A stretch of DNA of 64,000 nt, taken from the NCBI GenBank assembly GCA_902779565.1, contig CACZCD010000006.1:11413-75412 (forward strand), in the 5' to 3' direction. The notes beneath the pieces were generated by a model. It worked only from the letters and a program-made list of their open reading frames with translations, was not told the DNA's origin and made no database searches. The position numbers were made by a program, and so were the translations under genes. Below, piece after piece: positions 1 to 58,837 of this stretch. Every line of letters starts with the position of its first letter. The stretch's first letter is position 1. Source of the stretch: an uncultured bacterium. Lineage in GTDB: Bacteria; Verrucomicrobiota; Kiritimatiellia; RFP12; UBA1067.

Positions 1-270
1 GCGCAGCGTGTCCGCTGCGACGTATGCGTAAGCACGCGCACGCACCGCAACAGCCATGCCAGCCAGCTCCGCAAGGCGTGCGATCTTCACGCCGGACACC
101 GTGACGGCATACTGCGGGTTCGCCTTAAACGAGCGCAGCAGGTGCAGCAGGTACTTTGCAGCAAGCGAAGCGTTCGCGTTCATTTCTGCCCAGCCATCGT
201 CGGCGGGGTTCCACTTCCACGGCTGCGCCTTGCGCTTTGCCGTGCCTGTTTGCAGCTTCTTTTCCATGTG
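1..270 (-). CDS. hypothetical protein, 5'-partial at window edge (integrated element)
   Basis: Minus-strand ATG at 270 reads MEKKLQTGTAKRKAQPWKW... and runs off the window start; co-oriented with the other element genes; the + strand ORF 56..709 is Cys/Arg-rich junk. Confidence 0.35.
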
Positions 271-280
271 TTGCGTCTCC

Positions 281-718
281 TTACTTGCCGAGCATTTTCT
301 TTCGCGCCTGCTTGCGTGCAAGCATAAGCTCCTCGTTTTCGCGTTCCTGCTTTTCCGCTTCCAGCCGTTCGCGTTCCGCCCGTGCTGCCGCCAGCCGTTC
401 GCGTTCCGCCTGTGCTGCCGCTTCCGCCTTGCGCAGCCGTTTCGTCTCGGCTGCGATCTCTGCGGGTGTCATCTTGCGGAAGTCAATGAAACGCAAGCCG
501 CAATGCTTGCATTTGCCGATGGAGATTGCAGCGTTTACCCGTTCGCTCATTTCATACCGGGTCGCCTTCACCACTTGCCAATTACCGCGTTTGCAGCCGG
601 GGCATTTCGCGCTGCTGCCGCGTTTCTCAATCTTCGCGTCCGTTCGTGTCCGTGCCATTGCCTTTCCCTCCTGTCTATGCGCACGCCCTGCCGCGTGCAA
701 ATGCGTTGACCGATTCAA
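281..718 (-). CDS. zinc-ribbon (CPGC...CKHC) plus coiled-coil protein; alternative start at 658
   Basis: ORF track 281..718; two CxxC pairs; Ala/Glu/Arg-rich coiled coil; contains a 30-bp tandem duplication at about 361-420. Confidence 0.5.
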   Translation of the reverse strand: MNRSTHLHAAGRAHRQEGKAMARTRTDAKIEKRGSSAKCPGCKRGNWQVVKATRYEMSERVNAAISIGKCKHCGLRFIDFRKMTPAEIAAETKRLRKAEAAAQAERERLAAARAERERLEAEKQERENEELMLARKQARKKMLGK

Positions 719-959
719 GCGTCACGCGGGTTGAACCCAGCAGCGGCACCGTTTCAAGTTTGCCGCTCCTAACAAGCTGGTAAACCGTTGACCGGGAAAC
801 GCCGAGACGCTTTGCCGCGTCCGTGTGTGTTAGCAGCCTGTTTTCCCGTTCCGCACTCGCGGGTCGGGTGTCGCTGCCGTCCAATATAGCGTCAATGCGT
901 GAAAGCTGCGCCGGGTTCGCCGCAAGCATTTTCTGCATTCGCTCTGTTGCGTTCATCAT
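675..959 (-). CDS. excisionase/AlpA-like HTH DNA-binding protein
   Basis: Internal start MMNATER; HTH segment LLTHTDAAKRLGVSRSTVYQLVRSGKLETV typical of the excisionase/MerR-like HTH_17 family. Confidence 0.55.
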   Translation of the reverse strand: MMNATERMQKMLAANPAQLSRIDAILDGSDTRPASAERENRLLTHTDAAKRLGVSRSTVYQLVRSGKLETVPLLGSTRVTLESVNAFARGRACA

Positions 960-1182
960 GTTTTGCTCCTTTGCATTATTGCACGCACACACGCGGCACC
1001 GCACCGCGATTGCTTGCGCACGCGGACAATATAGCACAGCGCAAGCAATGTAAAATCATTTTGGCGTATGTTGGCGCAAATGGCGCGTATGCGGCACAAA
1101 AAAAACGGGGTCGGCTCCCAATGCCGAACCCCGCCGACGCTCTGCGCGTCTTTCCGTACGGTTGACCTTTCGTTCGTACAAG

Positions 1183-1830
1183 CTACTTGAAATCAAGCGG
1201 GAACTTATACAGCGCACGCGCTTGCTTTGCCGGGGGCAAATTGCTGTCGCCGTTGCCCTTGCGCATTACGGGCTTTTTCGGTTCCGCAGCCTTAAACCTG
1301 CGCCGCACCGTGCGCACGCTGCATTGCAGCCGCTGCGCAACCTCGCCAATCGTCAACCATTCCGCGCCCTGTATCTCGTCCGCTTCAATGCGTTTCATAA
1401 GCCGATAGCATTGCGCCTCGGCTTCGCGCAGCTGCTCCCGTGCGTGCGCCAGCTCTGCGCCTATGGTTTGCGCCATGCTTGCCATGTCCTGCGCATGGTC
1501 TTCGCGCTCTGCCGCAAGCTGCGCTTCAAGCCCTGCCGCCCTGCGTGCCATGCGCAACGCCTCGCGGGGTCGCAGCGGTCGCGGCACCGGGTGCCCGTTC
1601 TCTTCCGCGTCCGCAACCTCCGCCGCACGCGCTTGCATGAACTCTGCGCCCATGATGTCGGCACGGTACAGCTTGCCGCGTCTGCTTGCGCGTGCGTGCG
1701 CCTTGCGCTCCGTCTCGCGCACCTGCGCAACGGTACAGCCGCGCACCTGCGCAAGCTTGCGCTCCGCCTTGCGTGCTTGCGCCGGGGTTGTCCGTGCAAG
1801 CGTTGTTTTTCCGTTCTTCGGTTTTTTCAT
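1183..1830 (-). CDS. hypothetical phage-like protein with C-terminal HTH
   Basis: 215 aa, basic N-terminus, coiled coil, C-terminal WLTIGEVAQRLQCSVRTVRRRF HTH. Confidence 0.5.
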   Translation of the reverse strand: MKKPKNGKTTLARTTPAQARKAERKLAQVRGCTVAQVRETERKAHARASRRGKLYRADIMGAEFMQARAAEVADAEENGHPVPRPLRPREALRMARRAAGLEAQLAAEREDHAQDMASMAQTIGAELAHAREQLREAEAQCYRLMKRIEADEIQGAEWLTIGEVAQRLQCSVRTVRRRFKAAEPKKPVMRKGNGDSNLPPAKQARALYKFPLDFK

Positions 1831-1854
1831 TGCTGGTTCCTCCTGTGTTGTCTG

Positions 1855-3633
1855 TTAGTGATTGTTCCGGCTGCGCAGCGCGTTTGCGCCGCTTGCCCTG
1901 ATAAGCTTTTCACGCGCTGCCTTTGGCATTGCCGCCAGCAGCAGCAGCACAGCCCGTGCGGGGTCTGCGTCCGCTTCCACGCCAGCCGCACGCATTACGG
2001 CTTCCGCCGTCGCCTCGTCTGCCGTCAACTGCCTTGCTGCGCCTCCTTCAAGCACGGTGCCCGACATCTGCTTGCGCACGCGCTCCGCTTCGCTTTCCTT
2101 GGTCGGGTTGAAATAGTTGTCAAGCGTTGTTTCAACATCGCCATGACCGACGATCTTGCGCACCTTCTCCGCAGGTACTCCCGCCTGTATCGCAAGCACG
2201 ACAAATGTGTGCCGCAGGTTGTGCCAGCCGAGCAGCGAGGCGGCATACTTGCCGACCGTGCGCCGCTGCCGCGTGCGCTCCGTCAAGTCGGCAGCGGAAG
2301 GGGCACGCCCCCGGCTGCGCATACCTTCAACGCGGGGTCGGTATGTCTCGCCCGTGATAGCTTCAAGCTCTTTCAGATAATTTGAAACCTGCCCCCGCGC
2401 AATGCCCATGCCCTCCGCAATCTTCACGCACGCCTCGCCGCTCCTGTGGCGTGCGTAAACCTCGCGCAGCCGCGCAGCCTTGCCCGGCGCGAACCGTGCG
2501 CCGTCAATGAGCTTCGCCACGGCTGCCGCTTCAAGCGGCTTCTCGTCCTTCAAGCGTGCGGGTGCCGGTTCCTCCTCCGTGAACACGGCACGCGCAAAGT
2601 AAGGTTTAACCATGCGCACAAGCCCCGTGCGCTGGTCGGGATAGCCTTTCGCGTTCGCGTGATTGTACCTTGCTGCGGCTGCGGGGAAGACATACGGCGA
2701 ATCATTCACGGCGTGCTTTGCCTCGCGCTCCTCCAGCACGGCACGCAGCCGGGCGAAGATCGGGATTGTCACGCGCACGCCAGCTTTCGCCGTTATGCAG
2801 TCTATCACGCCCCCTTGCAGGTCAATGTCGCCCCATTTCAGATTGCACACATCACCGAGGCGCATACCCGTGCAAGCAGCGCAAACCACAAGCTCATGCA
2901 GCGCAGGGCGTTCCTCCGTCACTTCAAACAGCCGCGCAAGCTCCGCCTCCGTCAGCGGTCGGCGTTCCACCTTCGCGCCGTCCTTCTCGCCCCTGCGCAG
3001 CACAATGCCCTCAAACGGGTTGCGCCCCGCGTATGCGTGCCAGCGCGTCCACGCCTTGGAGACGAGGTGCCATTGGTCTTTTACTGTGCCCCACGCATAG
3101 GTCGTGCGCAGCTCCTCAAACCATGCCGCAGCAAGTTCGGGCGTTATCTCGTCAAGGGTGTCGCACGCGCCCCCATGCTCCGAGCAATAAGCCCTTGCGA
3201 ACTTTGCGAACCGATTGAAGGTCGCGCCAGCAATGCGCTTGCGCTCCGCCGTCGGCTCGTAGTTCCGCGCCAGCCCCGTCCACAGGTCAAGCAGCCCCGC
3301 CAGCTTCGGGCTTTCAATCGCCTTGCCCGTCCGCGCAATGTGATACCGATTGACAAGATCGGCTTCCTCCGCCTGCCGCACCGCCTCCGTTTTGCCCGTG
3401 GTCTTCGCCGCCGTCTGCATTTTGGCAAGCGCAGCAAGCGCAGCCTTGCGCGACCGCTCAAAATCCGCGTTGCCCTTCGCCGCAAGGTCAATGCGCCCGT
3501 CCGCGTCAAGCGGCAGCGTGCCGCGTATCGGCACGCGCAAGGGCACATTCACCTTTTGCCCGTTGCGGGTGAAACGCGCATACCATGTGTCGCGGTATCC
3601 GCCTTTCCCGTCTGTCATAATCTTCAAGCCCAT
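1855..3633 (-). CDS. int: site-specific tyrosine recombinase (phage integrase), unusually long
   Basis: C-terminal catalytic region HNLRHTFVV...GHGDVETTLDNYFNP (R..HxxR..Y motif); start refined to MGLKIMTDGKGG at 3633 with an AGGAG RBS 7 nt upstream; ORF track extends to 3720. Confidence 0.85.
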   Translation of the reverse strand: MGLKIMTDGKGGYRDTWYARFTRNGQKVNVPLRVPIRGTLPLDADGRIDLAAKGNADFERSRKAALAALAKMQTAAKTTGKTEAVRQAEEADLVNRYHIARTGKAIESPKLAGLLDLWTGLARNYEPTAERKRIAGATFNRFAKFARAYCSEHGGACDTLDEITPELAAAWFEELRTTYAWGTVKDQWHLVSKAWTRWHAYAGRNPFEGIVLRRGEKDGAKVERRPLTEAELARLFEVTEERPALHELVVCAACTGMRLGDVCNLKWGDIDLQGGVIDCITAKAGVRVTIPIFARLRAVLEEREAKHAVNDSPYVFPAAAARYNHANAKGYPDQRTGLVRMVKPYFARAVFTEEEPAPARLKDEKPLEAAAVAKLIDGARFAPGKAARLREVYARHRSGEACVKIAEGMGIARGQVSNYLKELEAITGETYRPRVEGMRSRGRAPSAADLTERTRQRRTVGKYAASLLGWHNLRHTFVVLAIQAGVPAEKVRKIVGHGDVETTLDNYFNPTKESEAERVRKQMSGTVLEGGAARQLTADEATAEAVMRAAGVEADADPARAVLLLLAAMPKAAREKLIRASGANALRSRNNH

Positions 3634-3807
3634 TTTCTGCTCCTGTTCGTTTTGTGCCGTTCGCCGTTGACTCGCGCTCGGCGGTGTGATAAACTGTTTG
3701 CCATGAGAAACACTATACAATATCGGTCAACGCCGCACATAATAACACATCGCGTCGGCAAACGCAACTCCAAAAGGGGGCACAAATGGGGGGCACGGCG
3801 AATGTTA

Positions 3808-3825
3808 TAGCGCGTTATAACGCGC
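3808..3825. promoter_or_regulatory. 18-bp perfect palindrome AGCGCGTTATAACGCGCT between the integrase start and the tRNA-like fragment
   Basis: Seen directly; candidate operator or recombinase core site. Confidence 0.4.
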
Positions 3826-3854
3826 TTTTGCAAGGGCTTTCCCGTGTTAGCGTA

Positions 3855-3904
3855 CCGCTTTCGCAACGTGGGGGTCGAGAGTTCGAATCTCTTCTTCTCC
3901 ACCA
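3855..3904 (+). other. tRNA-Ala(CGC)-like 3' half (anticodon arm, T-arm, acceptor 3' strand with U70, A73, CCA); putative att site of the integrated element
   Basis: T-arm GAGAG-TTCGAAT-CTCTT, acceptor CTTCTCC-A-CCA, anticodon loop TTCGCAA; no compatible 5' acceptor strand or D-arm found upstream, so not a complete tRNA. Confidence 0.5.
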
Positions 3905-4486
3905 TTTGAAAAGGTGGCAGAGTTCCAATTCCGGAACCGCCGCCTTTCTTGTTTTTAAGTGCGTATGGGATATTGAAATGCGTGCTTGGTTCTGGATTGT
4001 GGGTTGTAGTGTTGGTTATGGGTTTGCCTGTCAGTATGCGGCGGCATTCCCCGCCCAGCACATTCGGTCAGCGCTGAGCTTGGCTGTGGCCGTCTCGGCG
4101 GCGCACGCGGCGCCTTGCGGCCCCTTTGGGCGCTTCGCTTCGCTCGCGGCTGCCCTCCGCTTCGCTCCGGCGCATTTCCGGCGTCGGCGGGTTCCTGCGG
4201 GGCGCCGCGTCCGTATGCGGCGCGATCTGCCGTCGCCCGGCTCGGTCGGAATACCTCCCATCGCCGGATCGGCGGCACCTCGCTTGCCTCCGTCCGCGTC
4301 ACCCGCCGTCACCACCTCTGCCTCGTGTCGCCGCCTCGCCGTCCCGCTCCGCTCATTCGAAGCAGCACATCAGTATGGAATAAAATTCGATTAGCGCAAA
4401 GCTCACGCAGGGCGGCGGATGCCGCCCTGAATTTAGCGGAGTGAGGGGTGAGTGGTGGGATGCTTCGAGGGAAACCCGGAACGCGG

Positions 4487-4583
4487 CATGGCATTCGGTG
4501 CGCATGAGCCGCCACGGACGCGGCAGGAGCCGCGCCCGTGCCGAGCGAATCCCCACTGACAAGGCGCACCGACGAATGCCGCC
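4487..4583 (+). repeat. 95-bp structured dispersed repeat, copy A
   Basis: About 90% identical to the reverse complement of 58549-58640; long-range stem GGCATTCGGTGCGC / GCGCACCGACGAATGCC enclosing nested GC-rich hairpins. Confidence 0.8.
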
Positions 4584-4619
4584 GTGTCACGGAGCGGTGG
4601 GTATTGCGTGAGGGCGCGA

Positions 4620-4670: not shown

Positions 4671-5246
4671 ATGGGCGAAGTCATCGGCGCGGGCGAACTG
4701 CACAAAGGCGTCAAACTCTTGATCGACGGGGAACCGTGGGAAATAACGGAGTTTGATTTCTCGAAGCCAGGCAAGGGCCAGGCCATCTACAACTGCAAGC
4801 TGCGCAACATGATCACGGGCGGCGGCATGAGCCGCAGCTACCGTTCGGGCGACAAGTTCGAGAAGCCGGAGTTGATCCAGCGCGACGTCACGTATTCGTA
4901 CGACGACGGCACCGCGTACGTGTTCACGGACGAGAACTTCGAGGAGATCCGCGTGTCGGCGGACGTGATGGGCGACAAGAAGTACTTCCTGATGGACGAG
5001 ATGGAGGTCTCCGCGCTCTTCTTCAATGACAAGGTGATCGGCGTCGCCCTACCGCAGCTTGTGACGCGCAAGGTCATCAAGGTCGAGCCGGGCGTGAAGG
5101 GCAATACCGCCTCCGGCAAGGTTACGAAGCCGGCGACGGTCGAAGGCGGCTATACGCTTGCGGTCCCGCTCTTCATCAACGAAGGCGACATCATCCGCAT
5201 CAACACCGAGACCGGCGAATACAACGACCGGACGGCGACGAAGTAG
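4671..5246 (+). CDS. efp: elongation factor P
   Basis: 191 aa; KPGKGQA loop and overall EF-P pattern. Confidence 0.95.
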   Translation: MGEVIGAGELHKGVKLLIDGEPWEITEFDFSKPGKGQAIYNCKLRNMITGGGMSRSYRSGDKFEKPELIQRDVTYSYDDGTAYVFTDENFEEIRVSADVMGDKKYFLMDEMEVSALFFNDKVIGVALPQLVTRKVIKVEPGVKGNTASGKVTKPATVEGGYTLAVPLFINEGDIIRINTETGEYNDRTATK

Positions 5247-6963: not shown

Positions 6964-8508
6964 ATGGCACAGAAGACGATAGGCGCCGCTGTGGGCGCGT
7001 GCGCGTTTGCGGCGCTTGTGGTGCTGCCGCTGTGGATATGGTACGGCTGGCGGATCGAGCCGGAGAACGGGCAGATCGCAATCCTGCTGAAAAAGACAGG
7101 GCGCAATCTGCCGCCCGAGGCGATTCTCGCCCCCGGGCCGGAGTACAAGGGCATTCAGGAGGAAGTGCTTCCAGAGGGCCGCCACTTCCGGAATCCTTGG
7201 ACGTGGGAATGGCATTACGCGAAGATGGTGGATATTCCCGCCGGAAAGTTCGGCGTGTTGGTGCGCAAGTTCGGCAAGGACCTTCCGGAGGGTGAGATCC
7301 TCGCGCGCGACGGCACGCGCGGCATTCTGCGCGATGTGCTCGGTACCGGCAAGCACCGCATCAACCCTTACGCCTACGATGTGAAGGTGTATGACGACAT
7401 CACCATCAAGCCCGGCCATGTGGGGGTTGTCACGGAGTTGACGGGTGACGATATCCTTGCCGCAGGAGGTGCCAAGGCACCCGAGACCGGATCCGGTTTC
7501 CTCGTGAAGCCGGGCGCAAAGGGAGTCTCTCCCCGCATACTCAAGGAGGGCACGCACCGGCTCAACCCGTTCGTCTATTCCGTTTCGATCGTGAACATCC
7601 AAAGTCAGCGGTTCGAGCTGAGCGGGGCGGACGCGATCTCGTTCCTCACGCTCGACGGCTTCACGGTGAACGCCGAGGGCACGCTTGAGTTCAACATCGA
7701 CGTTGACAAGGTGGCGCTCCTTTCGCATGAGGTGGGTGACATGGACGACATCCTGCAGAAGATCGTCCTGCCGGCGGCACGCGGCTTCTCGCGCATTGAG
7801 GGCAGCAAGAAGAACGCCACGGAGTTCATCGTGGGCGAATCGCGCCAGGCGTTCCAGAACTCGCTGGAGAAGTACCTGAAGGACGTCTGCAAGCCGTGGG
7901 GCGTGTCGCTCAACTCCGTGCTGATCCGCGACATCTTCGCGCCGCAGGAGGTGGCGGCGATCATCCGCCAGCGCGAGCTCGCCGTGCAGGAAGGGCTCAA
8001 GATCGAGCAGCAGATCGTGCAGGCGAAGTCCCAGGCCGAGCTTGAGAAGCAGAAGGCGCTCGCGGCGCAGAACAGCGCGCGTGTCGCCGCCAACACGAAG
8101 TCCATCCAGGCGAAGATCGCCGCCGAACAGGCGAGCGTGGAGAAGGTGGTCGCCGCCCAGACGCAGCTGGAGGTGGCCGAGCGCGAACTGAAGGCCGCGC
8201 AGGCCGATGCCACCGCGAAGCTGACGGTGGCCGAGGCTGAGCGCAAAGTGGTGGAGGTGCGTACCGTGGCTGAGGCGGATGTGCTGAAGCAGGAGGTCGC
8301 GGCTTACGGCGGTGAAGCCAACTACGTGCGGGCGAAGCTGTACGAGAAGACCGCTCCGCGTCTGCGCGACGTGGTGACGGGTGATTCGCCGGGCGAGATA
8401 TTCGGTCTGCCGATTCGGGGAACGGGGAATGGGGAACGGGAAACGGGGAACGGGAGATCTCAATCCCCAACTCCCAACTCGCAACCCATGAAAGGAGGTG
8501 CGAAATGA
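6964..8508 (+). CDS. SPFH/band-7 (flotillin-like) membrane protein with triplicated N-terminal beta module and C-terminal coiled coil
   Basis: N-terminal TM, three repeats of the G..ILA..G...GV.....G.H..NP pattern, SPFH-like core, long Ala/Glu/Lys coiled coil; start refined to MAQKT with a GGAG RBS; C-terminal tail encoded by a G-rich tract. Confidence 0.8.
   Translation: MAQKTIGAAVGACAFAALVVLPLWIWYGWRIEPENGQIAILLKKTGRNLPPEAILAPGPEYKGIQEEVLPEGRHFRNPWTWEWHYAKMVDIPAGKFGVLVRKFGKDLPEGEILARDGTRGILRDVLGTGKHRINPYAYDVKVYDDITIKPGHVGVVTELTGDDILAAGGAKAPETGSGFLVKPGAKGVSPRILKEGTHRLNPFVYSVSIVNIQSQRFELSGADAISFLTLDGFTVNAEGTLEFNIDVDKVALLSHEVGDMDDILQKIVLPAARGFSRIEGSKKNATEFIVGESRQAFQNSLEKYLKDVCKPWGVSLNSVLIRDIFAPQEVAAIIRQRELAVQEGLKIEQQIVQAKSQAELEKQKALAAQNSARVAANTKSIQAKIAAEQASVEKVVAAQTQLEVAERELKAAQADATAKLTVAEAERKVVEVRTVAEADVLKQEVAAYGGEANYVRAKLYEKTAPRLRDVVTGDSPGEIFGLPIRGTGNGERETGNGRSQSPTPNSQPMKGGAK
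8417..8455 (+). repeat. G-quadruplex-type tract (GGGGAAY)n in-frame at the 3' end of SPFH gene 1, followed by a C-rich tract
   Basis: GGGGAACGGGGAATGGGGAACGGGAAACGGGGAACGGG, encoding GTGNGERETGNG. Confidence 0.8.
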
Positions 8509-22825: not shown

Positions 22826-24528
22826 AATCCACCGCCGCAACGGGCACGGCCTTCTGCCTGCCGACCCTACGCGCGGAGGCGCGCCCCGTGCTGACGGTCG
22901 GCCTGATGAGTGACACCCACCTCACGCGCGAACCATCCTCCGCCGTCCGCTCGCGTCTGGCGATGGAGCTTTTCAAGAAGCTCGGCGCGGACGTGATCGC
23001 CCATCTCGGTGACCTCGCCGACTGGCATTACAAAGAGGCGTACACCTTCTACCGTGAGGCGCTCGATGCCGTCTTCCCGCCGTCCACCCGTCGCCCAGAG
23101 CTGCTGTACGCCTTTGGCGACCACGACGCCCTCGATCCCGCTCGCCGCAAGGAACCGCGCGCCAGCTGGCGCGGCGACTGTCGTCAGAGCTTTGCCGACA
23201 TGGCGGCGCGTCTCGGTATCGACCATGGCTACTCCGACCTCAAGGTGATCGCGGGCTATCCGTTCCTCATCTTCCCGCAGACCCTCGACAGTCAGCTCAC
23301 CCTCGCCGACTACGAGCGCACGATCGCCGAGACCTGCGCGAAGTTCCCGTCTGGTCCGGTGTTCGTGCTGGAGCATCCTCCGGCGTATCAGACGACCTAC
23401 AACTCCTGCTTCCAGGATCCGCGCCGCCGCGCCGTTTTGGACAAGTTCCCGCGTGTCGTGGACATCTGCGGACACAAGCACGCCTCCGTCAAGAATGAAC
23501 TCTGCATTTGGCAAGGAACCTTCACGGCGATCCAGACGAGTTGCCTCCAGAAGTGGTACGGGCTCAACATCGGCGGGCGAATCGTCGGGAAGGAGTCCTG
23601 GTGCGTTTGCGTGATGCAGGTGTTTCCGGATCGCCTTGTGATCCGCCGCTATGATGTACGCGATGGCGTCGAGTTCCGTCCGGACGCGCCTTGGACGGTG
23701 CCGTTGCCGTTTGTGTCCGAAACCGCTCCGCTCACCGTCCCCGCGCGGCGGCGCACGGAGCGTGCGGCGGCGTTCCCGGCAGGGGCGGCGCCTTCTGTGG
23801 AGGTGGATGGCACGCCATTTTCGCAGGTCGGCGTGAAGTTCCCCACCGCCACCGATCCTGACATCGTGCTCCACTACCGCGTGGAAGCCGCCCGGCGGAA
23901 CGCCGCCGGCGCATGGGAGAGGTCCGTCAGCGCCGACGTTTTCGGTGACTTCTACGAACGCCCGGTCGATCGGAAGGGGACGCTTTCGTGGAACTTCGAT
24001 TCGGCGCTGTTTGATGCCGGCGGTGAATACCGGTTTACGGTTACGCCCGTCGGATTCTTCGGCACGGAGGGTGCTCCGATTTCCTGCCTCTGGCGTGCGC
24101 CGGAGAAGGTGCTCTCTGAGGTCGTCTGGCGGTGCGACAATCCCATGGAGGAGCTCAAGTTTGTGGGCGCCGCGAAGACCCATCGCGAGGGCGACTGGCT
24201 TGTCTGTGGTCCGGGCGAGTTCAGGATCGATCCGCCGCCGGAGGCGTTCAAGGGACGCAAGGGCGATCGGTTCACCTTCGTCGCGGAGATGCAGACGGTG
24301 CAGACCGCTGTTCCGGTTGGTGTGGCGTTCGGTTTGTCGCGTGCCGTATGGTCTGGCGGACTTCTTACGCCGCTTGGCGATTCCGGCATGGTACGCTATG
24401 CGCTCACAGAAACGTTGGCGGGGGATAAGCCGAAGTGGGCGTTCAAATTCGCCGGCCATGGCAACCTCAAGGTGCGCTTCGCGAAACTCTGGATCCAGAG
24501 GCGGGGGAAAGCGCCAGATGGTATTTGA
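22798..24528 (+). CDS. TAT-secreted metallophosphoesterase (calcineurin-like)
   Basis: RRSFLKS twin-arginine motif; GDLADW, GDHD, HKH phosphoesterase motifs. Confidence 0.75.
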   Translation: MPICRRSFLKSTAATGTAFCLPTLRAEARPVLTVGLMSDTHLTREPSSAVRSRLAMELFKKLGADVIAHLGDLADWHYKEAYTFYREALDAVFPPSTRRPELLYAFGDHDALDPARRKEPRASWRGDCRQSFADMAARLGIDHGYSDLKVIAGYPFLIFPQTLDSQLTLADYERTIAETCAKFPSGPVFVLEHPPAYQTTYNSCFQDPRRRAVLDKFPRVVDICGHKHASVKNELCIWQGTFTAIQTSCLQKWYGLNIGGRIVGKESWCVCVMQVFPDRLVIRRYDVRDGVEFRPDAPWTVPLPFVSETAPLTVPARRRTERAAAFPAGAAPSVEVDGTPFSQVGVKFPTATDPDIVLHYRVEAARRNAAGAWERSVSADVFGDFYERPVDRKGTLSWNFDSALFDAGGEYRFTVTPVGFFGTEGAPISCLWRAPEKVLSEVVWRCDNPMEELKFVGAAKTHREGDWLVCGPGEFRIDPPPEAFKGRKGDRFTFVAEMQTVQTAVPVGVAFGLSRAVWSGGLLTPLGDSGMVRYALTETLAGDKPKWAFKFAGHGNLKVRFAKLWIQRRGKAPDGI

Positions 24529-27500
24529 GCCGGGACAGAAAATCGGTGCATACAAAATAATCCGCCGTCTCGGACAAGGCGGCATGGGGGCGGTGTATCT
24601 CGCACAGGCACCAGACGGGGAGCTGTACGCTATCAAGGTGATGACGTCGAAGGTCGAGGACGATGGTTCGCACACCTGTGAGCGATTTCTTCGTGAAGGC
24701 GAGTTTGCACGCAATATTCGCCATCCTAATCTCATTGCGGTCTATGAGGTTCAAGTCGATCCCTCTACTGGCCTGAATTATATCGTGATGGAATATGCGC
24801 CCGGTGGTAGCATACGGGATCGTTTGTCCAAGGAAGGGCGATTTGACATAGCCGAGGCGGTGGAGATAATACGACAGGTGGCCTATGGACTTGCCGCGGC
24901 CCATCAGCACGGGGTCGTCCATCGCGACATCAAGCCGGATAATATCCTTTTTGCCGCAGACGGGACCCCCAAGCTCGCTGACCTCGGCGTTGCTAAATTT
25001 ACGGATGGCCCGAAGAAGATGACAATGACTTTGGCCGAGGAAGTCGTTGGAACCCCCGCATACATGGCGCCCGAGCAGATGATGGATGCGCACAAGGTTG
25101 ATTCGCGCGCCGACATCTATGCGCTAGGTGTCGTGTTCTACGAGATGTTGGCCGGGGAACGCCCGAATGAAAGTGATACTTACTTGCAGCTGCTGGCGAA
25201 GGCCGTGAAAGGCATCCCTCTTCCCAGTGTGCGCAAGATGAGGCCGGAGGTCTCGGCGGCCCTCGTGCAGATTCTCAACGTGATGTGTGCAATACGAGCC
25301 GACGACAGGTTCGATTCCTCGCAGAAGTTGATTGATGTATTGGAGCGGCTCAAGCGAGAAGGTCTTGACACGCATTTGCGTCTTCGCCAACCGCCGAATC
25401 GCCATCGTCGTCGGCTGCTTGCCCTATCGTTTCTTTTGGGATTGTCATTCCTTGCCATTGGTGCTGTTGCATACGACAGGCTGGCAACATTCGTCGAACA
25501 TTACGGCGATTGGGTGGACGAATGGGGCATTCCGTCCGGCCGCATTCCGCTTGATGAAAAGATTGCCGAGAAGCGCGATCATTTCACGTTTGAGTACCGT
25601 GGTCGCAGTTCGTTCTTCGGAAAGCGCGTCCTACGACGCGTGACGCAAAGGGATATCTTTGGATTCTTCAAATGCACGAAAGACATGATGAACGGCAGAC
25701 GTCCAGAAATCATGGACATTGCCTATGGAGAGGACGGTCGACTGGCTTATATCGACCATGTAAAGCCAAGCGGACGAATCGAGCTCAGATGCCTGTACTC
25801 TGGTGCGGACAGGCGCTACATTGACTTTAAAGTTCCAGAACGGGATGGAGGGTTGATTGCAGCATTCCTATCGGACAGCTATGATGACGAAGATGATTTC
25901 GGAAACGGTGAGCGCAATGATACTGCCCGGATCCGCCGCAATGTAGTGACTCGCGATAAGTATGGGCGCATTGTCAAGGTGGAATTCATGATGAATGATT
26001 CCAATGAACCTACGGCTGATTCAGATGGGTTCTTTGGGAGGGTTTTTGAAAGGGATGAGATGGGACGGGTCTCCTCCATGTACCACATTGACGAGCATGG
26101 AAAGATGGCAGTGGGTGAGTGTGGCGTTGCATTCGTCCGACAGGCCTATAACACGGACGGAAACCTTCGCGAGATAGCATGGTATGACACCTCGACAAAT
26201 GCCGTTCTTTCTGCAAACGGCTATGCATCTCAACTTTTTGATTATGACGATTTCGGGCGTTGTATTAGTGAAACCTACCGCGGCATTGATGGAAAGCCAT
26301 GTTTGTCACCCAGTGACGGGTATGCCGGGAGTAAAACGACGTTTGATGCAGAAAACAGAATTATGAGGACGATGTATCTAGGTCTGGACGGGAAGCCAAA
26401 ATACGTCAATAATGGATTTGGAGCTGGAGAGGAGGCGACTGTCGATCTTGCCAATCATACGCCATGTCATGTGCGAACAATTCTCCTTGACGAGGATGGC
26501 GAGCCTCGGTCATGCAGAGAGGGATATGCGATAATTGAGCGGTTCTTCGTAAAAGGGATGGAGGTGGAACGGAAATATTTTGATGTGGACGGGAGGCCGG
26601 CCGTCGGAACATATGAATTCCATCGCCGTCAGAAAATATATGATTCCTTTGGAAATCTAAGTGAGATTCGATTTTATGGGACCGACGGCAAGTTGTGCAG
26701 TCATTCGGACGGTATGGCTATCATAACCCATCGCCACGACAGTGCGGGGCGTATGGTTGAACGGAGATTTCGTGACAAGCACGAAAAACCATGTAAAATC
26801 AAATTTGGATATGCGGTAGAAAGATTGCGATACGACTCTTCCGGAAATCTTGTGGAACTCATTTATCTGGACGAGGCAAACAATCCATGTGAAACGAGTC
26901 ATGGATATGCCTCCGTCAGACAGAAATTTAATGCCGAGGGGCGTCTAGTCCGTTGGGAATGTCTATCGAAAGATGGGCGCCCGCCAACAAACAGGATTCC
27001 TGTTGAGGAATATTCCCGTGAGAAGCATGGCCGTATTACTGAGATTCGCCATTGTGATGCATCTGGTGCGCTGTGTGCGAATAAGTCGGGAGTGGCTAGG
27101 ATCACATGTGCATACGATGGACGAGGCCGCAGGGTGAAGGTTGATTCCTACGCTCCGGATGGGAGTCGGATGGGGGTTGCCATTCACTCTGAATATGATT
27201 CGAGAGGATGCGAGACGCTTAGAGAATATATCGGAACAAATGGATGCTTGACAACAGACAGTGTTTGGGGATGCAAGCGTATGCGCATGCGTTATGACGA
27301 CTTCAACAATTGCATTGAGCGAAGTTTCTATGATGAACACGAAAAACCTATGCTAAACCACCATACGTCACAGAAACCTTTTGGCATCTTCCGCATCACT
27401 TATGCAGTGAATCGACAAACCGGAATGACCGAAAAACGATACTATGGTGTGGACGGAAAGCCTTGCTTGTGCGCACGTGGATACGGCGGTCTGCGGGATT

Positions 27501-27976
27501 TTATGGACTCTGAAATTGAACGTCAGGCGTATATTGAATTCCTTGGACTTGGCGGAACGCGTAAGAATCTCCCCAAAGAAGCATGGGGCGGAGGAGGTTT
27601 CTTTGGCTTTGAACAGAGATTCAATTCGCGCGGAGACATTGTATGGAAGATGCACTTTGACGAAGACTACCAATATGTCATGCGTCATGACGAGTGTGGA
27701 TTTCTGGAGGTGCATGACGTGACTGGACGAAAGATCGCACGTCTGCATCTTGGCATGGATGGGAAGCCGCACAAGACGACGCGCGGCGAATGGGGCTGGT
27801 ACTTGCCGGCCGATGCGGACTTAAACGGCAACAAACAGAAGCGCCAGCCAATTAAAGACGAGGGACAGGCTCAGAAGCTGTTTGCGCAGGGAATGGCGGC
27901 GATCGTTGCGCCACGAAACCGATTTGTCGAGGAGTGGAAAAAGGTTCGGCTTGAAAAGGTTCCAAAGCAACTCTGA
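24518..27976 (+). CDS. Ser/Thr protein kinase, one TM, then about 850-aa extracytoplasmic YD (Rhs-like) repeat region
   Basis: Hanks kinase motifs (GQGGMGAVY, AIK, HRDIKPDN, DLG, APE); TM LALSFLLGLSFLAIGAVAY; at least 12 repeats of YDxxGR....Y.G.DGKPC; the repeat region has lower GC. Confidence 0.8.
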   Translation: MVFEPGQKIGAYKIIRRLGQGGMGAVYLAQAPDGELYAIKVMTSKVEDDGSHTCERFLREGEFARNIRHPNLIAVYEVQVDPSTGLNYIVMEYAPGGSIRDRLSKEGRFDIAEAVEIIRQVAYGLAAAHQHGVVHRDIKPDNILFAADGTPKLADLGVAKFTDGPKKMTMTLAEEVVGTPAYMAPEQMMDAHKVDSRADIYALGVVFYEMLAGERPNESDTYLQLLAKAVKGIPLPSVRKMRPEVSAALVQILNVMCAIRADDRFDSSQKLIDVLERLKREGLDTHLRLRQPPNRHRRRLLALSFLLGLSFLAIGAVAYDRLATFVEHYGDWVDEWGIPSGRIPLDEKIAEKRDHFTFEYRGRSSFFGKRVLRRVTQRDIFGFFKCTKDMMNGRRPEIMDIAYGEDGRLAYIDHVKPSGRIELRCLYSGADRRYIDFKVPERDGGLIAAFLSDSYDDEDDFGNGERNDTARIRRNVVTRDKYGRIVKVEFMMNDSNEPTADSDGFFGRVFERDEMGRVSSMYHIDEHGKMAVGECGVAFVRQAYNTDGNLREIAWYDTSTNAVLSANGYASQLFDYDDFGRCISETYRGIDGKPCLSPSDGYAGSKTTFDAENRIMRTMYLGLDGKPKYVNNGFGAGEEATVDLANHTPCHVRTILLDEDGEPRSCREGYAIIERFFVKGMEVERKYFDVDGRPAVGTYEFHRRQKIYDSFGNLSEIRFYGTDGKLCSHSDGMAIITHRHDSAGRMVERRFRDKHEKPCKIKFGYAVERLRYDSSGNLVELIYLDEANNPCETSHGYASVRQKFNAEGRLVRWECLSKDGRPPTNRIPVEEYSREKHGRITEIRHCDASGALCANKSGVARITCAYDGRGRRVKVDSYAPDGSRMGVAIHSEYDSRGCETLREYIGTNGCLTTDSVWGCKRMRMRYDDFNNCIERSFYDEHEKPMLNHHTSQKPFGIFRITYAVNRQTGMTEKRYYGVDGKPCLCARGYGGLRDFMDSEIERQAYIEFLGLGGTRKNLPKEAWGGGGFFGFEQRFNSRGDIVWKMHFDEDYQYVMRHDECGFLEVHDVTGRKIARLHLGMDGKPHKTTRGEWGWYLPADADLNGNKQKRQPIKDEGQAQKLFAQGMAAIVAPRNRFVEEWKKVRLEKVPKQL

Positions 27977-38460: not shown

Positions 38461-39451
38461 AGACACTCTCGCCAATCGCCGTGGGGCGGATATGGCGGTG
38501 GAGAATCTCGCGTCTGCGCTTCAGGAGCGCGGCGCGAGATTTGGGGAACGGGGAATGGGGAGCGGGGAATGGGAAGTTGTCCTATTTGAGGAGCGCGAAT
38601 TCGAGGCTCGCATGAACGAACGGTGGGATGTCGTGATTTCCACCGGCACTAACGAACTCCTCGACCTCTACGACTATTTTTCTGTACGATCGACACGTTC
38701 TACACGGCTACCCCTATCCCCCGTTCCCCATTTCCCATTCCCCATAATCCAACAATTCCACACCAACCCCAAGAGCCAATTCAAGTGGAAACGGTTCGTC
38801 CGAAACTGGAAGATCAGAAGGGCGCTGCGCCACGTTGCCGCGATTCAGGTGTTGCGTGAAGAGGTCGTGCGGCAAGTTGCGAAGTATGGGCCGCCGGTTT
38901 CGGTGATCGGCAACTGGAGCGAATGGGAGGGACGGGCGCGGATGGAGCCGCCGAGGGGCCAGACAATTATCTATCCCGCCGTTTGGGGCAGGGGCAAGAA
39001 TCAGCGTCTTGCCGTAGAATCATTCGCTTCGGTTTCAAAGGATTTCCCGGGATGGTCGCTTGAACTCTATGGCAACGGGACTCCAACCTTCCCGCTGCCA
39101 GAGGGGGTGGTGCATAAAGGCTACTGCGATTTGGGTGCGGTTTATGCCTCCTGCGCATTTGTTGCATTTCCGTCGCTTGACGAGGGCTTCCCGCTGACGC
39201 TTGTTGATGCCGCAGCATTCGGCCGCCCGGCCGTTACAGTGTGCGATTGGGTCGGGGCCGCCGCCGTTGGCGGCGGAATCGTCGCCGAACCGACGGTCGC
39301 CTCCTATTCTGCCGCATTGCGGCGATTGATGTCCAGCGAAGAGCTGAGGTGCGAGATGGGAAGGGTCGCAAACCGATTCTGCCTGGAACGGTACTCCCGG
39401 AAGGTCATTTTGGACAAGTGGGAAACTTTGCTTGAAAGTGTGGTAAAATAG
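38441..39451 (+). CDS. glycosyltransferase family 4 (GT-B fold), N-domain carrying in-frame G-rich and C-rich repeat insertions
   Basis: C-terminal GT4 pattern (E..FP, FP.L.EGF, G.P.V); insertions at 38543-38574 and 38711-38744. Confidence 0.7.
   Translation: MKIGIYKDTLANRRGADMAVENLASALQERGARFGERGMGSGEWEVVLFEEREFEARMNERWDVVISTGTNELLDLYDYFSVRSTRSTRLPLSPVPHFPFPIIQQFHTNPKSQFKWKRFVRNWKIRRALRHVAAIQVLREEVVRQVAKYGPPVSVIGNWSEWEGRARMEPPRGQTIIYPAVWGRGKNQRLAVESFASVSKDFPGWSLELYGNGTPTFPLPEGVVHKGYCDLGAVYASCAFVAFPSLDEGFPLTLVDAAAFGRPAVTVCDWVGAAAVGGGIVAEPTVASYSAALRRLMSSEELRCEMGRVANRFCLERYSRKVILDKWETLLESVVK
38543..38574 (+). repeat. G-quadruplex-type tract GGGGAACGGGGAATGGGGAGCGGGGAATGGG, in-frame
   Basis: Encodes RFGERGMGSGEW. 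Confidence 0.8.
38711..38744 (-). repeat. same (GGGGAAY)n family in inverted orientation (C-rich on + strand), in-frame
   Basis: CCCCTATCCCCCGTTCCCCATTTCCCATTCCCC. Confidence 0.8.
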
Positions 39452-42727: not shown

Positions 42728-43016
42728 GTAGGTAATGTCGTAAAATTTGGGAAGATATCATGGGAAAACAGGGAGAGATTCTGGGGGCAGGAAGAAGTTA
42801 TGGGAAAACAGGAAGAGATTATGGGAATACAGGATGATATTACGAGAATGCGGAGTAAAAACTCCCCCTCTAAGATAGAGGGGGTGGCCGGAGGCCGGGG
42901 GAGTATGACGGGGGACGGAATCATACCCCTTCGCCCCTTCGGGGCACTCCCCCTGTCTCAGGGGGAGAGTTTGACATGCCATACCCAACTGTGTGACATT
43001 ACCAACTGATAACTGA
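42728..43016. mobile_element. MITE-like insertion: 9-bp direct repeats TGATAACTG, about 12-bp TIRs GTAGGTAATGTC/GACATTACCAAC, three 21-nt tandem repeats and three GC hairpins
   Basis: Seen in sequence between the aroF stop and pheA; contains a TTGACA -35-like box near its right end. Confidence 0.45.
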
Positions 43017-47340: not shown

Positions 47341-48113
47341 CGATCGGCATCCGGGGCATGGGGCTGATTGGCGGCTCGTTTGAAAAGGCGTTCGCGCGCG
47401 CAGGGCATCGCGTGGTGAACCTCAAGGAGGCGTCTGCCGCCGACATCCGTTCGTGCGGACTCGTCATCGTGTGTCTGCCGCCGCTGATGGTCGCGCCGTG
47501 GATCGAGGCGCATGCGGCGGAGTTCGCCGACGACGCAATCGTCACCGATGCGGCGGGCGTGAAGGGCGTGGTGTGCGCGGCGTTGGCCGATCTCGCCCGA
47601 AAGGTTCCGTGGACCTATGTGGGCGGACATCCCATGGCGGGAAAGGAACGGAGTGGCTACGAAAACGCCACCGCCGATCTCTTCAAGGGCGCGTCGATGA
47701 TCTTCACGCCGTACGCGGGGGCAGACCCTGCCGTCCTCGAACGGTTGAAGGCGCTGTTCGCGGAGGCGGGGTTCGGTCGGTTCGTCGTCACCGATCCCAA
47801 GCATCACGACGAGATGATCGCGTACACGAGCCAGCTCGCCCATGTCGTTTCGTCGGCGTATGTGCGGGATGAACTGTCCGCGCAGCATCTCGGTTTCTCG
47901 GCGGGCAGCTATCAGGATATGACGCGCGTGGCGACGGTCAATCCCGAGATCTGGACGGATCTCTTCCTGTCGAACCGTGGCGCGCTGGAGGCGGTGCTGA
48001 CGCGTCTCATCGATCGGCTGTCGGGTTACCGCGATGCGCTGCACGCCGCCGACGCCGAGAAGCTGCGCGCGCTGTTGGCGGAAGGGCGCGCCGCCAAGGA
48101 ACGCGTGCATTGA
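47337..48113 (+). CDS. tyrA: prephenate dehydrogenase
   Basis: Rossmann GMGLIGGS plus PDH pattern (HPMAG). Confidence 0.8.
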   Translation: MTIGIRGMGLIGGSFEKAFARAGHRVVNLKEASAADIRSCGLVIVCLPPLMVAPWIEAHAAEFADDAIVTDAAGVKGVVCAALADLARKVPWTYVGGHPMAGKERSGYENATADLFKGASMIFTPYAGADPAVLERLKALFAEAGFGRFVVTDPKHHDEMIAYTSQLAHVVSSAYVRDELSAQHLGFSAGSYQDMTRVATVNPEIWTDLFLSNRGALEAVLTRLIDRLSGYRDALHAADAEKLRALLAEGRAAKERVH

Positions 48114-48126
48114 ATCGGGAGGTGTT

Positions 48127-49290
48127 ATGTCGTTGAAGTGCGGATTGCTGGGCGAGAAACTGGGACACAGCCGGTCGCCGGAGATACACCGGAAGCTGGG
48201 CGGCTACGAATATCGCCTTTACGAAAAGACGCCAGCGGAGGTGGAGGAGTTCCTTCTACGGGGCGATTATGATGTCCTTAATGTGACGATCCCTTACAAA
48301 AAGGTCGCCTTTGGACTTTGCAAGGAGGTTTCGCCCGTCGCCGCCGAACTGGGGAACGTGAATGTGGTCGTGAAGCGGATGGACGGCACGCTCTTCGGCG
48401 ACAACACCGACAAAGCGGGTTTCGAGAAACTGGTGTCGCTCGTGGGGGTGTCGGTGAATGGCCAGAAATGTGTGGTGCTGGGCACGGGCGGCGCGGCGAT
48501 GACGGCAGCGGCGGCGTTGCGCGGATTGGGCGCGGGCGCGGTCGTTCACATTTCGCGTTCAGGTCCGGACAACTACACCAATCTGGAGCGCCATGCCGAT
48601 GCGGCGATCCTCGTGAACGCCACGCCGGTAGGGATGTTCCCGTATGTCGAAGATCAACCGGTTTCGCTTTCGGCGTTTCCGCGCTGCGCGGCGGTGATCG
48701 ATCTCATCTACAATCCGTCGCCCACGAAACTGTTGGCCGAGGCGGCCGCGCGCGGTATCCCGCAGGTGGGCGGGCTGCCGATGTTGGAGGAACAGGCGCG
48801 GCTTGCCAGTGTGTACATGAACGCCAACCTTTATCTCTATGGCGCACCTGGCTCTGGCAAATCGACGTTCGGGCGGCAGCTGGCTGCCACCAAGGAGATG
48901 CCGTTTGTCGATCTGGATGATGAGATTGAAGCGCGTGACGGACGGAAGATCGCAGACATCTTCGCGCAGGACGGGGAGGCGGCGTTCCGTGCGATTGAGA
49001 AGGCGGCGTTGAAGCGCGTTTCCGCCACGCCCGGTCAGGTTGTTGCGTTGGGCGGCGGTGCGCTGCTCGCCCCCGAATCGCGGCAGGTGGCGGAGGCAAC
49101 GGGTCGTGTGATCTTTCTGGAGTGTCCGGAGGAGGAGCTGGTGCGCCGTGTTTCGTTGTCTCAGGCGCGGCCCTTGCTGGCTGGTGAGGCGGCCAAGCGT
49201 CTTCATGCACTGCTCGCCGCCCGCCACGACCACTACGCCTCCTTCAAGGAGCGGATCAAGACAACGCCCGAACGCGTACCGCGTCACTGA
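48127..49290 (+). CDS. aroE/aroK: bifunctional shikimate dehydrogenase / shikimate kinase fusion
   Basis: N-terminal AroE pattern (SRSP, NVTIPYK, NTD, GTGGAA); C-terminal Walker A GAPGSGKST and shikimate-kinase lid; GGGAGG RBS. Confidence 0.85.
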   Translation: MSLKCGLLGEKLGHSRSPEIHRKLGGYEYRLYEKTPAEVEEFLLRGDYDVLNVTIPYKKVAFGLCKEVSPVAAELGNVNVVVKRMDGTLFGDNTDKAGFEKLVSLVGVSVNGQKCVVLGTGGAAMTAAAALRGLGAGAVVHISRSGPDNYTNLERHADAAILVNATPVGMFPYVEDQPVSLSAFPRCAAVIDLIYNPSPTKLLAEAAARGIPQVGGLPMLEEQARLASVYMNANLYLYGAPGSGKSTFGRQLAATKEMPFVDLDDEIEARDGRKIADIFAQDGEAAFRAIEKAALKRVSATPGQVVALGGGALLAPESRQVAEATGRVIFLECPEEELVRRVSLSQARPLLAGEAAKRLHALLAARHDHYASFKERIKTTPERVPRH

Positions 49291-49487
49291 ACCGCAGGCG
49301 CGGAGCAGGGCTTTGCGCGGTTTATCGGGGGCGTGGTTCAGTGACGCAGCTTCGATGGAGGTCTTCCGGGCCACCACCTTGACGTTTTGAGCCGACTGTG
49401 GTACAGTATCCGTCGTTGTGCAAAATAGCACAATGCTTTTTCGCACAACGCCAAACAGTGCAATGTGATTTTAAAGAGGAGTGAGAT

Positions 49488-50698: not shown

Positions 50699-51046
50699 AT
50701 GACGATAGCAGATGTAGTGAAGGTTCTGAACGGAAAACTGATGGCAGGCGATGCGGCGAGTCCGCGCGTGGTCGGTGCCGTGGTGGCGAACGACCTGATG
50801 AGCGACGTGCTGCTTTTTGATGCGGACGATGCGCTCCTGCTCACGTCGCTCGCGAGCGACCAGGCGATCCGCACGGCGCACATCGTGGGCGCGATGGGCG
50901 TGGTAGTGCACAACGCAAAGCCGCTTTCCGAAACGATGATCAAGGTCGCGAACGATCTCCATATCCCGCTCGTGTCGTCGCCGCTCTCGAAGTACGACGC
51001 GTGCGTGAAGATGCATGACGCCCTGGAGATGGAGAATAGAGCTTAG
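50699..51046 (+). CDS. DRTGG domain protein
   Basis: 115 aa; DRTGG-like pattern with conserved Asp/Gly positions. Confidence 0.55.
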   Translation: MTIADVVKVLNGKLMAGDAASPRVVGAVVANDLMSDVLLFDADDALLLTSLASDQAIRTAHIVGAMGVVVHNAKPLSETMIKVANDLHIPLVSSPLSKYDACVKMHDALEMENRA

Positions 51047-51086
51047 TGGCTAGTGGTTAGTGATTAGTGGTTAGTGGATAGTGGCT
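51044..51086 (+). repeat. six tandem heptamers TAGTGGC TAGTGGT TAGTGAT TAGTGGT TAGTGGA TAGTGGC
   Basis: Begins at the TAG stop of the DRTGG gene and ends 1 nt before the ATG of the CBS-GHKL gene. Confidence 0.85.
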
Positions 51087-52118
51087 ATGGAAAACTATAC
51101 GCCTACGATCATCACCGGCGAGCAGCAGCAGGACGACGAGATATTCGCGAAGATTCCGGCCTTCGATGCGGACGGTCAGGCGGGGCATGTGACCCTCCCG
51201 AGCGGCGACGGCTCCGTGATCATCATGGAACTGCTGCAGCGGTTCAAGGTGCGCGACGTGATGAAGCGCACCGTCATCTCGGTTTCGCGCGGCACGAAGA
51301 TGCGCGAGGCGCAGCGGATCATGCGCGAGAACCGCATCTCGGGACTTCCCGTCTCGGAGGAAGGGCGGCTGTTCGGGATCGTTTCGGTGAACGACATCAT
51401 CAACGCGCTCGACAACGGCTGGATCGATGAACCGTGCGAGAACCACATGGCGAGCAGTCTGGTGGTGTTGGAGGCCGGCATGCCGCTTGCCTATGCGCTC
51501 CGCTACTTCAACAACTACACGTACGGACGCTTCCCGGTGCTGGACTCCTCGCGCAAGCTCGTGGGGATCATTTCGCAGCGCGACGTGATGCGCGCGCTCC
51601 TCTATGAGCTTTCCGTCGAGATCCGCAAGCTGGAACGCAAGGCGGCGCGCGGCACGAACGCCGGACCGGAGCATGCCTCGGGCGAGAACTACTTCCGCAA
51701 GGAGTTCGCGGTGGTGCACAATGATCTCGGCAGCGCCGGACGCGCGGCGAACGAGATCAAGCAGATTCTGAAGGAGCGCAAGATCGACCGTTCCATCGCC
51801 CGTCGCGTGGCCGTGGCCGCCTACGAGCTTGAGATCAACATCTGCATCCATTCGCACGGCGGCATCCTTACGTTCATTTTGGCGGACGACAAGATCACGA
51901 TCCGCGCGAAGGATCGCGGTCCCGGCATTCCGGATATCGAATGGGCCTGCCGTGACGGCACCTCCACCGCGAACGACTGGATCCGGTCGATGGGCTTCGG
52001 CGCCGGCATGGGGCTTTCGAACTCCAAGCGCGTGTCGGACGAGTTCGACATCAAGTCTGAGGTCGGAAAGTTCACGCAGGTGACCTGTGTGTTCAGCCTT
52101 TCGGCGAAACAAGAATAG
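51087..52118 (+). CDS. CBS-pair plus GHKL (HATPase_c, RsbW/anti-sigma-type) protein kinase-like regulator
   Basis: Two CBS motifs; C-terminal GHKL N, G1 and G2 boxes (EL.IN, DRGPGIPD, GFGAGMG). Confidence 0.75.
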   Translation: MENYTPTIITGEQQQDDEIFAKIPAFDADGQAGHVTLPSGDGSVIIMELLQRFKVRDVMKRTVISVSRGTKMREAQRIMRENRISGLPVSEEGRLFGIVSVNDIINALDNGWIDEPCENHMASSLVVLEAGMPLAYALRYFNNYTYGRFPVLDSSRKLVGIISQRDVMRALLYELSVEIRKLERKAARGTNAGPEHASGENYFRKEFAVVHNDLGSAGRAANEIKQILKERKIDRSIARRVAVAAYELEINICIHSHGGILTFILADDKITIRAKDRGPGIPDIEWACRDGTSTANDWIRSMGFGAGMGLSNSKRVSDEFDIKSEVGKFTQVTCVFSLSAKQE

Positions 52119-58493: not shown

Positions 58494-58548
58494 TTCCTCT
58501 CGCTGCGGTGCTTCGGAAGGATGCACTTTCGGGGACCCCACCCTTCAA

Positions 58549-58640
58549 GGCGGCATTCGTCGGTGCGCCTCCACAGTGGGGATTCGCTCGGCACGGGCGC
58601 GGCCTGCGCCGCGTCCGTGGCGGCTCATGCGCACCGAATG
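58549..58640 (-). repeat. 95-bp structured dispersed repeat, copy B (inverted relative to copy A)
   Basis: Reverse complement matches 4487-4583 with a few substitutions. Confidence 0.8.
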
Positions 58641-58837
58641 ATATGTAAAGCCGGGAGCGGAGGCGGCTTGCCTGTTTTGAGGGACGCCCGGAATGAGCCA
58701 CGCCAAACGGTGCGTTGACAAGGGCGTGGCGAATGAAGGGTGGGATCCCCAAAACAGGCAACCGCGCAGCGAGCGGCTCCCCGCCTGCCGTTCCGTGACG
58801 TAGTGCAACTTGAGAGGTGACGGCATGGAATCGGCTG

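Follow-up and report, generated by a model that had tools for sequence, protein, structure and literature searches.

Two inverted hairpin-forming repeats at either end of a 54-kb segment are probably the remnants of a family of non-autonomous, hairpin-rich MITEs that is mobilized in trans in an uncultured gut or rumen bacterium of the Kiritimatiellia. Both lie in a 64-kb window, by which we mean the whole 64,000-nt stretch of DNA that was analyzed. The family is previously undescribed, given that a brief literature search returned no described repeat family in Kiritimatiellia, and the category of the element itself is that of an ordinary selfish repeat.

An inverted pair of intergenic hairpins

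The window contains an inverted pair of 100-nt arms, 4487-4586 on the plus strand (copy A) and 58546-58645 on the minus strand (copy B), that are 90% identical, in agreement with the original prediction of two inverted copies of about that identity. A 33-mer of the repeat was found at exactly two places in the window and in none of 100 shuffles, and no third copy of the core was found in the 64 kb by low-stringency BLAST or by an unfiltered covariance-model search. The two copies differ at 10 positions, of which four fall in the apical tetraloop (4525-4528; AGGA versus GCAG), three in a second variable patch of 3 to 4 nt (at 4559-4561 of copy A) and three at the edges, while none falls in a predicted stem. 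Copy A folds with -49.7 kcal/mol (z = -3.3) and its complementary strand folds better (-57.3 kcal/mol); stems are predicted on both strands, and the description of the repeat as hairpin-forming holds. Pfam annotation of the neighboring genes likewise confirmed that both copies are intergenic. Copy A is located upstream of efp (EF-P at 4671-5246), and copy B has a polyprenyl synthase gene (ispA-like, ~57663-58493) on one side and an SBP_bac_5 gene (~58863-60392) on the other. The peptides said to be shared between spurious ORFs at the two sites were also recovered. What has to be corrected is the size of the unit: the 95 nt first taken for the repeat are the part surviving in both decayed copies, and they form the apex of a hairpin of ~200 nt.

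The complete element

The complete element is 420 to 480 nt long and non-coding. In the alignment it is bounded by terminal inverted repeats of ~17 bp (GTACTGCGTCACAGAAC ... GTTCTGTGACGCAGTAC), and it carries two long related hairpins, H1 on the left and H2 (~200 nt) on the right, with the 95-nt repeat as the near-invariant apex of H2. All-against-all BLAST aligned two metagenome loci, L016 (1494-1921) and L072 (3511-3937), over ~428 nt at 88% identity with unrelated flanks. The whole element folded far better than its shuffles, with a z of -8.9 on one strand and -11.7 on the other, and ORFs across the complete copies were frame-inconsistent and matched no family. In one further locus, L079, a deletion derivative of ~130 nt, H1 and H2 are joined.

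The terminal repeats are present at both ends in L016, L072, L053, L211 and a mini element of the window. A terminal-repeat 14-mer, with two mismatches or fewer allowed, occurs in the family loci only at element ends, against a background of one match in 1.45 Mb of unrelated loci. Variants of the terminal repeat are concordant within a copy, with GCGCCACAGAGC at both ends of L072 and CCGCG at both ends of L053. Putative target duplications in the form of 8-bp direct repeats flank three of the seven complete copies, with 8/8 matches in L211 (GTCACGGG) and 7/8 in both L016 (GTGAACTG/GTGGACTG) and L053; the maximum among 42 mismatched left/right pairs, which served as the control, was 6/8. A recognizable target duplication is absent in the remaining 4/7 complete copies, and the loci include no clean filled/empty site pair for a copy of the TIR type. 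We also considered a TA target duplication of the IS630-like kind, which was dropped because this TA belongs to the palindromic end GTAC, outside which the 8-bp repeats lie.

Bacterial MITEs are intergenic elements of less than 600 bp that encode no protein and are present in many copies. Terminal inverted repeats bound them, target duplications flank them, and their transposase is provided in trans; they can fold into a long hairpin if transcribed, and truncated or internally deleted derivatives occur. The family described here is similar to Correia/NEMIS of Neisseria and MITEAba12 of Acinetobacter in its size, its non-coding nature, its apparent dispersal, its ends and its truncated copies, and has no sequence relationship to either. 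It differs from Correia elements in its putative 8-bp duplication, where theirs is TA, and from the MITEs named in its interior, which consists of two ~140-200-nt covarying hairpins with a near-invariant apex and nested palindromic modules.

We propose that the element is inserted by a DDE transposase whose gene would lie elsewhere in the genome; this enzyme would bind the terminal repeats and make a staggered 8-bp cut, which would produce the 8-bp target-site duplications. Judging only by the 8-bp duplication and the resemblance of the ends, the mobilizing enzyme may be of the IS66/ISBst12 type. IS66 makes 8-bp target duplications (PMC6778807), and in ISDge4, which belongs to the IS66/ISBst12 group, the ends are GTAACTGCTCAGCA and the direct repeat is 8 bp long (PMC12898284). 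The ends of the family described here also begin with GTA and have GTA-CTGC-TCA in common with GTAACTGCTCAGCA. The match of GTACTGCGTCACAG to the ISDge4 ends covers 12 bases, is gapped and short, and is equaled in score by 10 of 5000 shuffles. The window and the family loci revealed neither an autonomous partner with matching ends nor an IS66-type transposase gene.

Three copies in the window

The window contains three element copies in all. The features at and around copy A, upstream of efp, are as follows.

4487-4586, plus strand: copy A, the H2 apex (covariance model 119.6 bits, model positions 50-149)
4406-4596, plus strand: A-type H2 unit with copy A, made up of the parts below (homology to L036 and L050 begins at 4406-4408)
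4409-4431, plus strand: small GC hairpin of the A-type unit
4434-4486, plus strand: left outer arm of the A-type unit
4587-4596, plus strand: end motif TCACGGAGCG of the A-type unit
3967-4596, no strand assigned: repeat-rich mosaic block of 630 nt with copy A at its right end (missing in L002 and L007)
4099-4352, no strand assigned: module X (in the opposite orientation beside H2 in L050, 545-292, 93% identity)
4038-4054, no strand assigned: single terminal repeat GCGGCGGCATTCCCCGC of module Z (one end only in the window)

The unit that contains copy A has lost 37 nt of its right outer arm between 4586 and 4587. These 37 nt are retained in L001, L004 and L006, which represent near-identical strains found as contigs encoding an identical EF-P, and also in L003, L005 and L008; the extra bases in the near-identical strains resemble the sequence after copy B. 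The A-type copies (window A, L001, L036, L050 and L052) have no terminal repeats, and their flanks carry a recurring GCGGAG ... CGGAGCG that is unexplained by DDE transposition of an element with terminal inverted repeats. H2 may be, or may formerly have been, a separately mobile palindromic module, because it is found alone without terminal repeats in the A-type form, as at efp.

The 630-nt block is bracketed by the direct repeats GTGCGTAT (3959-3966) and GTGGGTAT (4597-4604), which match at 7/8 positions. In L002 and L007, one GTGCGTAT directly links the tRNA-Ala terminator to the efp -35 box, and the strain difference at efp reflects either insertion or deletion of the block. Several smaller modules contribute to this mosaic. 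Module Y (~75-100 nt) splits both H1 and the H2 apex in L024; it also interrupts H1 in L013 and the apex in L075, and it recurs at window 4106-4159, which matches the ~75-nt insert within the H2 apex of L024 and L075. Module Z is small, has 17-nt inverted ends and is complete in L004 (9-167) and L061 (571-737). Some copies of the family are thus interrupted by small palindromic modules, and copies decay through internal deletions.

A "202-aa protein" appears in public assemblies at this locus (L001; window 3786-4394); it runs through the repeat modules and has no family match. Its start is inside a tRNA fragment (translation ...GREFESLLLHH), and this ORF upstream of efp is almost certainly spurious. 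A role for it as a RAYT was rejected on the same two grounds, the start within the tRNA fragment and the absence of a Pfam match.

The second element and the mini element comprise the following features.

58500-58805, minus strand: element B, a TIR-type MITE copy (orthologous to L013 and L061)
58546-58645, minus strand: copy B, the H2 apex (covariance model 110.7 bits over 58537-58655)
58790-58805, minus strand: left terminal repeat of element B
58647-58790, minus strand: hairpin H1 of element B (covariance-model match 46.9 bits)
58500-58545, minus strand: right H2 arm of element B
49276-49351, plus strand: mini element of 75 nt, GTACCGCGTCACTGAACC ... GGTTCAGTGACGCAG around a ~40-nt spacer (two terminal inverted repeats only)

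Element B is without a stretch directly to the left of the apex, which comprises the 76-nt left H2 arm and is retained in L013 and L061, the only loci orthologous to locus B. Its right terminal repeat is missing as well, and the element lies directly against the ispA stop codon (58493). Only ~100 nt are common to the two window sites because both copies have decayed by internal deletions. The sequence of the mini element is identical in the orthologous locus L209. The TGA (49288-49290) of the upstream shikimate dehydrogenase/kinase fusion gene (48034-49290) is inside the left repeat of the mini element, so that the final codons of this gene may have been reshaped when the element inserted.

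Dispersal and lineage

A metagenome scan with an 18-mer yielded at least 16 true family loci, and two more were reached via spurious-ORF peptides; the copy number is a lower bound, and most of the 18-mer matches listed were chance matches in soil contigs. The loci represent at least about 15 distinct flanking contexts across metagenome contigs, several of them from the same metagenome project. The flanking genes are unrelated to one another and include those for a chromate transporter, a xylose-isomerase-like protein, an FGE-sulfatase, an epimerase and NifU, as well as MnmG, DUF975, a 2-hydroxyacid dehydrogenase, a thioredoxin-like protein and an AraC-type regulator. Both orientations relative to the flanking genes were found, with no orientation bias, and no conserved neighbor gene or transposase accompanied the copies among the family loci. 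Many contigs end within the element, as is expected for a multi-copy repeat.

An 87-aa element peptide, used as a single-frame query in an exhaustive search, was present in only 20 of 1.84 billion representative proteins, which suggests that the family is restricted to its lineage. By PolA (77-78% identity), the nearest genomes are Kiritimatiellia or "Verrucomicrobia" MAGs from animal guts, and the element is absent at the polA loci of these relatives. The core 23-mer had no match in a genome collection in which the closest PolA is 77-78% identical, and searches based on copy A found no match in 72,556 plasmids (by BLAST) or in viral contigs.

Hairpin maintenance

Twelve distinct H2 copies gave a consensus hairpin of 62 pairs. 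Compensatory double changes were present in 20 of these pairs, mostly between A-type and TIR-type arms, and 96.4% of cells were paired compared to 88.5% in shuffles (0/500 reached the observed value) and 30-46% with slid partners. The compensatory arm changes indicate that hairpin formation is maintained. The pair does not stand alone with substitutions that break its stems, which was the outcome named as refuting the original prediction: further copies exist, and pairs are kept. The assignment to a REP/MITE-like family was supported by the many further copies at unrelated loci, the pair-preserving substitutions, the terminal inverted repeats and the putative 8-bp target duplications.

The apex of H2 and its internal loops (CATGAGCC and GAGCGAATCCCCACTG, both fixed) are invariant, and the tetraloops vary freely. 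Apex conservation is far above that of the arms, which hints at a sequence-specific role of the apex. The reverse-strand H2 consensus forms 71 pairs (-109.8 kcal/mol) compared to 62 pairs (-100.6 kcal/mol), and the wobble positions of the apex are all G·U on the reverse strand only, which corresponds to the window plus strand at B and the minus strand at A. The G·U and A·C cells of the outer arms are balanced between the strands, and the strand signal is therefore weak.

Within-copy compensatory changes in terminal repeats or arms are not required by classical DDE transposition. Upkeep of the hairpin could involve single-stranded DNA during mobilization or arm-to-arm templated repair. Such within-copy changes are more typical of hairpin-dependent HUH/RAYT systems (PMC3116915). 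In the main alternative, which we consider unlikely, H2 and the 75-nt doublet are REPIN- or REP-like: they would move as hairpins of single-stranded DNA, and the enzyme would be an HUH tyrosine transposase (RAYT-like or IS200/IS605-like) with a single gene copy at another place in the genome, with no DDE enzyme. REPINs have inverted halves, conserved blocks and a variable spacer, show compensatory changes and form clusters (PMC3116915). The units described here are likewise long hairpins of two inverted halves: they have conserved blocks, their spacer or loops vary, and compensatory changes are frequent. The mini element (49276-49351) is laid out like a REP doublet, the A-type H2 copies are without terminal repeats of the DDE kind, the modules cluster and nest like REP/BIME arrays, and the invariant internal loops of the apex would suit a protein recognition site. 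The family is thus like REP/REPIN sequences in its extragenic palindromes, inverted doublets, hairpin-keeping changes and clusters or mosaics.

However, three complete TIR-type copies are surrounded by 8-bp direct duplications, and HUH/RAYT transposition is not known to make target duplications. The family is also larger, given that H2 measures ~200 nt whereas a REP has ~20-40 nt and a REPIN ~100 nt, and the copies observed number at least about 15 rather than hundreds. No transposase domain, Y1_Tnp included, was found in about 45 window ORFs scanned with Pfam, and neither a Y1_Tnp domain nor a RAYT gene was seen in these ORFs or beside any copy. REP sequences have a GTAG-type 5' tetranucleotide, whereas the ends of the family described here read GTAC. 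As in E. coli BIMEs and pneumococcal BOX elements, several short repeat types are built into modular arrays in varied combinations and orientations; the modules of the present family have no sequence relationship to these and are much longer, and at least the outer frame acts like a transposon bounded by terminal repeats.

A second alternative is that the repeat acts as RNA, which we consider improbable. In this case, the copies would be structured noncoding RNA genes or cis-acting RNA (e.g., mRNA-stabilizing or terminating hairpins), with the apex as a functional RNA. The stems covary, the internal loops are invariant while the terminal loops vary freely, the apex wobbles are G·U on the one strand that folds better (-109.8 versus -100.6 kcal/mol), and copies are often just downstream of, or between, same-strand genes. 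Against this, no Rfam family matched even at permissive thresholds: no match reached the gathering score in the window, and for copy A and the complete element only chance-level matches were returned at E values up to 10. No promoter-like site is present within the element, and one weak terminator-like hairpin near its left end is no better than chance. Copies occur in both orientations relative to their neighbors, and the balanced outer-arm G·U and A·C cells also speak against this alternative. Near-identical strains carry copies with half of the hairpin deleted, other modules are inserted in the apex of L024 and L075, and the terminal inverted repeats and target duplications are properties of DNA transposition. 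The original prediction had offered a small structured RNA as its second option, which found no support in view of the missing Rfam match, the missing internal promoter and the mixed orientation relative to genes.

A further reading would give the apex a role of its own: the H2 apex would serve as the recognition module for a replicator of the REPIN-RAYT type that is specific to the lineage and persists by vertical descent, or would be a structured RNA co-opted by Kiritimatiellia, with the TIR MITE as only one of its vehicles. We regard this as unlikely. Remnants of a MITE family mobilized in trans remain our preferred interpretation.

The neighboring integrase and other features of the window

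Window positions 1-3903 are the right end of an island integrated in tRNA-Ala(CGC), with the following features.

675-1037, minus strand: Xis-like HTH_17 gene
1183-1830, minus strand: 215-aa ORF
1855-3720, minus strand: tyrosine integrase, ~590-620 aa
3853-3903: displaced tRNA-Ala 3' fragment, followed by the tRNA terminator

L002 and L007 have an intact tRNA-Ala and no island. The proximity of this integrase raises the possibility that the inverted copies are recombination sites of the neighboring tyrosine recombinase (1855-3720), which would invert the 54-kb segment. A long Phage_integrase gene does lie ~770 nt from copy A, the two copies are inverted, and in L061 the flank joined to copy B on its ispA side is a different one. 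Nevertheless, the integrase ends the tRNA-Ala island and has its own attachment site, the tRNA 3' fragment at 3853-3903, the same repeat is present at at least about 15 other loci without an integrase, and the 54-kb segment contains housekeeping genes. The foreign flank of L061 is absent from the window and matches the flank of another element copy, in L053, which points to an ordinary repeat-mediated rearrangement or a chimeric assembly. We consider such an inversion system very improbable, and the integrase is unrelated to the repeats. An attC-like or recombinase site was rejected given that the integrase has its own tRNA-Ala attachment site and that other copies have no recombinase nearby. 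A tRNA-derived origin of the sequence was also rejected, the T-arm-like alignment being an artifact.

In L061 (1-1592), the ispA side of element B is joined to the flank that adjoins another copy in L053 (575-1840), and the NifU flank of L053 is common to L082. This junction has one of two origins: rearrangement between strains mediated by the repeat, or a metagenome assembly that is chimeric across it.

Other repeats were observed in the window. A second, unrelated intergenic repeat at 42750-43002 comprises tandem units of ~20-40 nt (42750-42846) and a GC-rich structured segment (42856-43002), the latter with 85% identity to L023 (2369-2505) and a match to L079 (5820-5877). A tandem repeat of about 7 nt is common to window 51034-51091, L050 (2035-2298) and L004 (1399-1448), and G-rich repeats (GGGGAACGGGGAATGGGGA...) are located at 8412-8461 and 38524-38573, 30 kb apart. 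A 1343-aa ORF at 23945-27976 has a Ser/Thr protein kinase domain together with RHS-repeat-like sequence, an architecture that is unusual in a region otherwise made up of housekeeping genes.

Implications

In summary, our analysis provides the first description of a repeat family in Kiritimatiellia, and it opens no new category of system. The elements break metagenome assemblies of this rumen/gut lineage, so that chimeric contigs are possible, and they seed spurious ORFs such as the annotated "202-aa protein" upstream of efp. They also mark sites of rapid strain-level structural change, and two of them touch on neighboring genes, given that one copy provides the stop codon of a shikimate-pathway gene and another adjoins the efp -35 box. 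Finally, the nested palindromic modules with co-evolving arms offer material with which to separate single-stranded DNA intermediates, RNA and repair in the upkeep of MITE hairpins.
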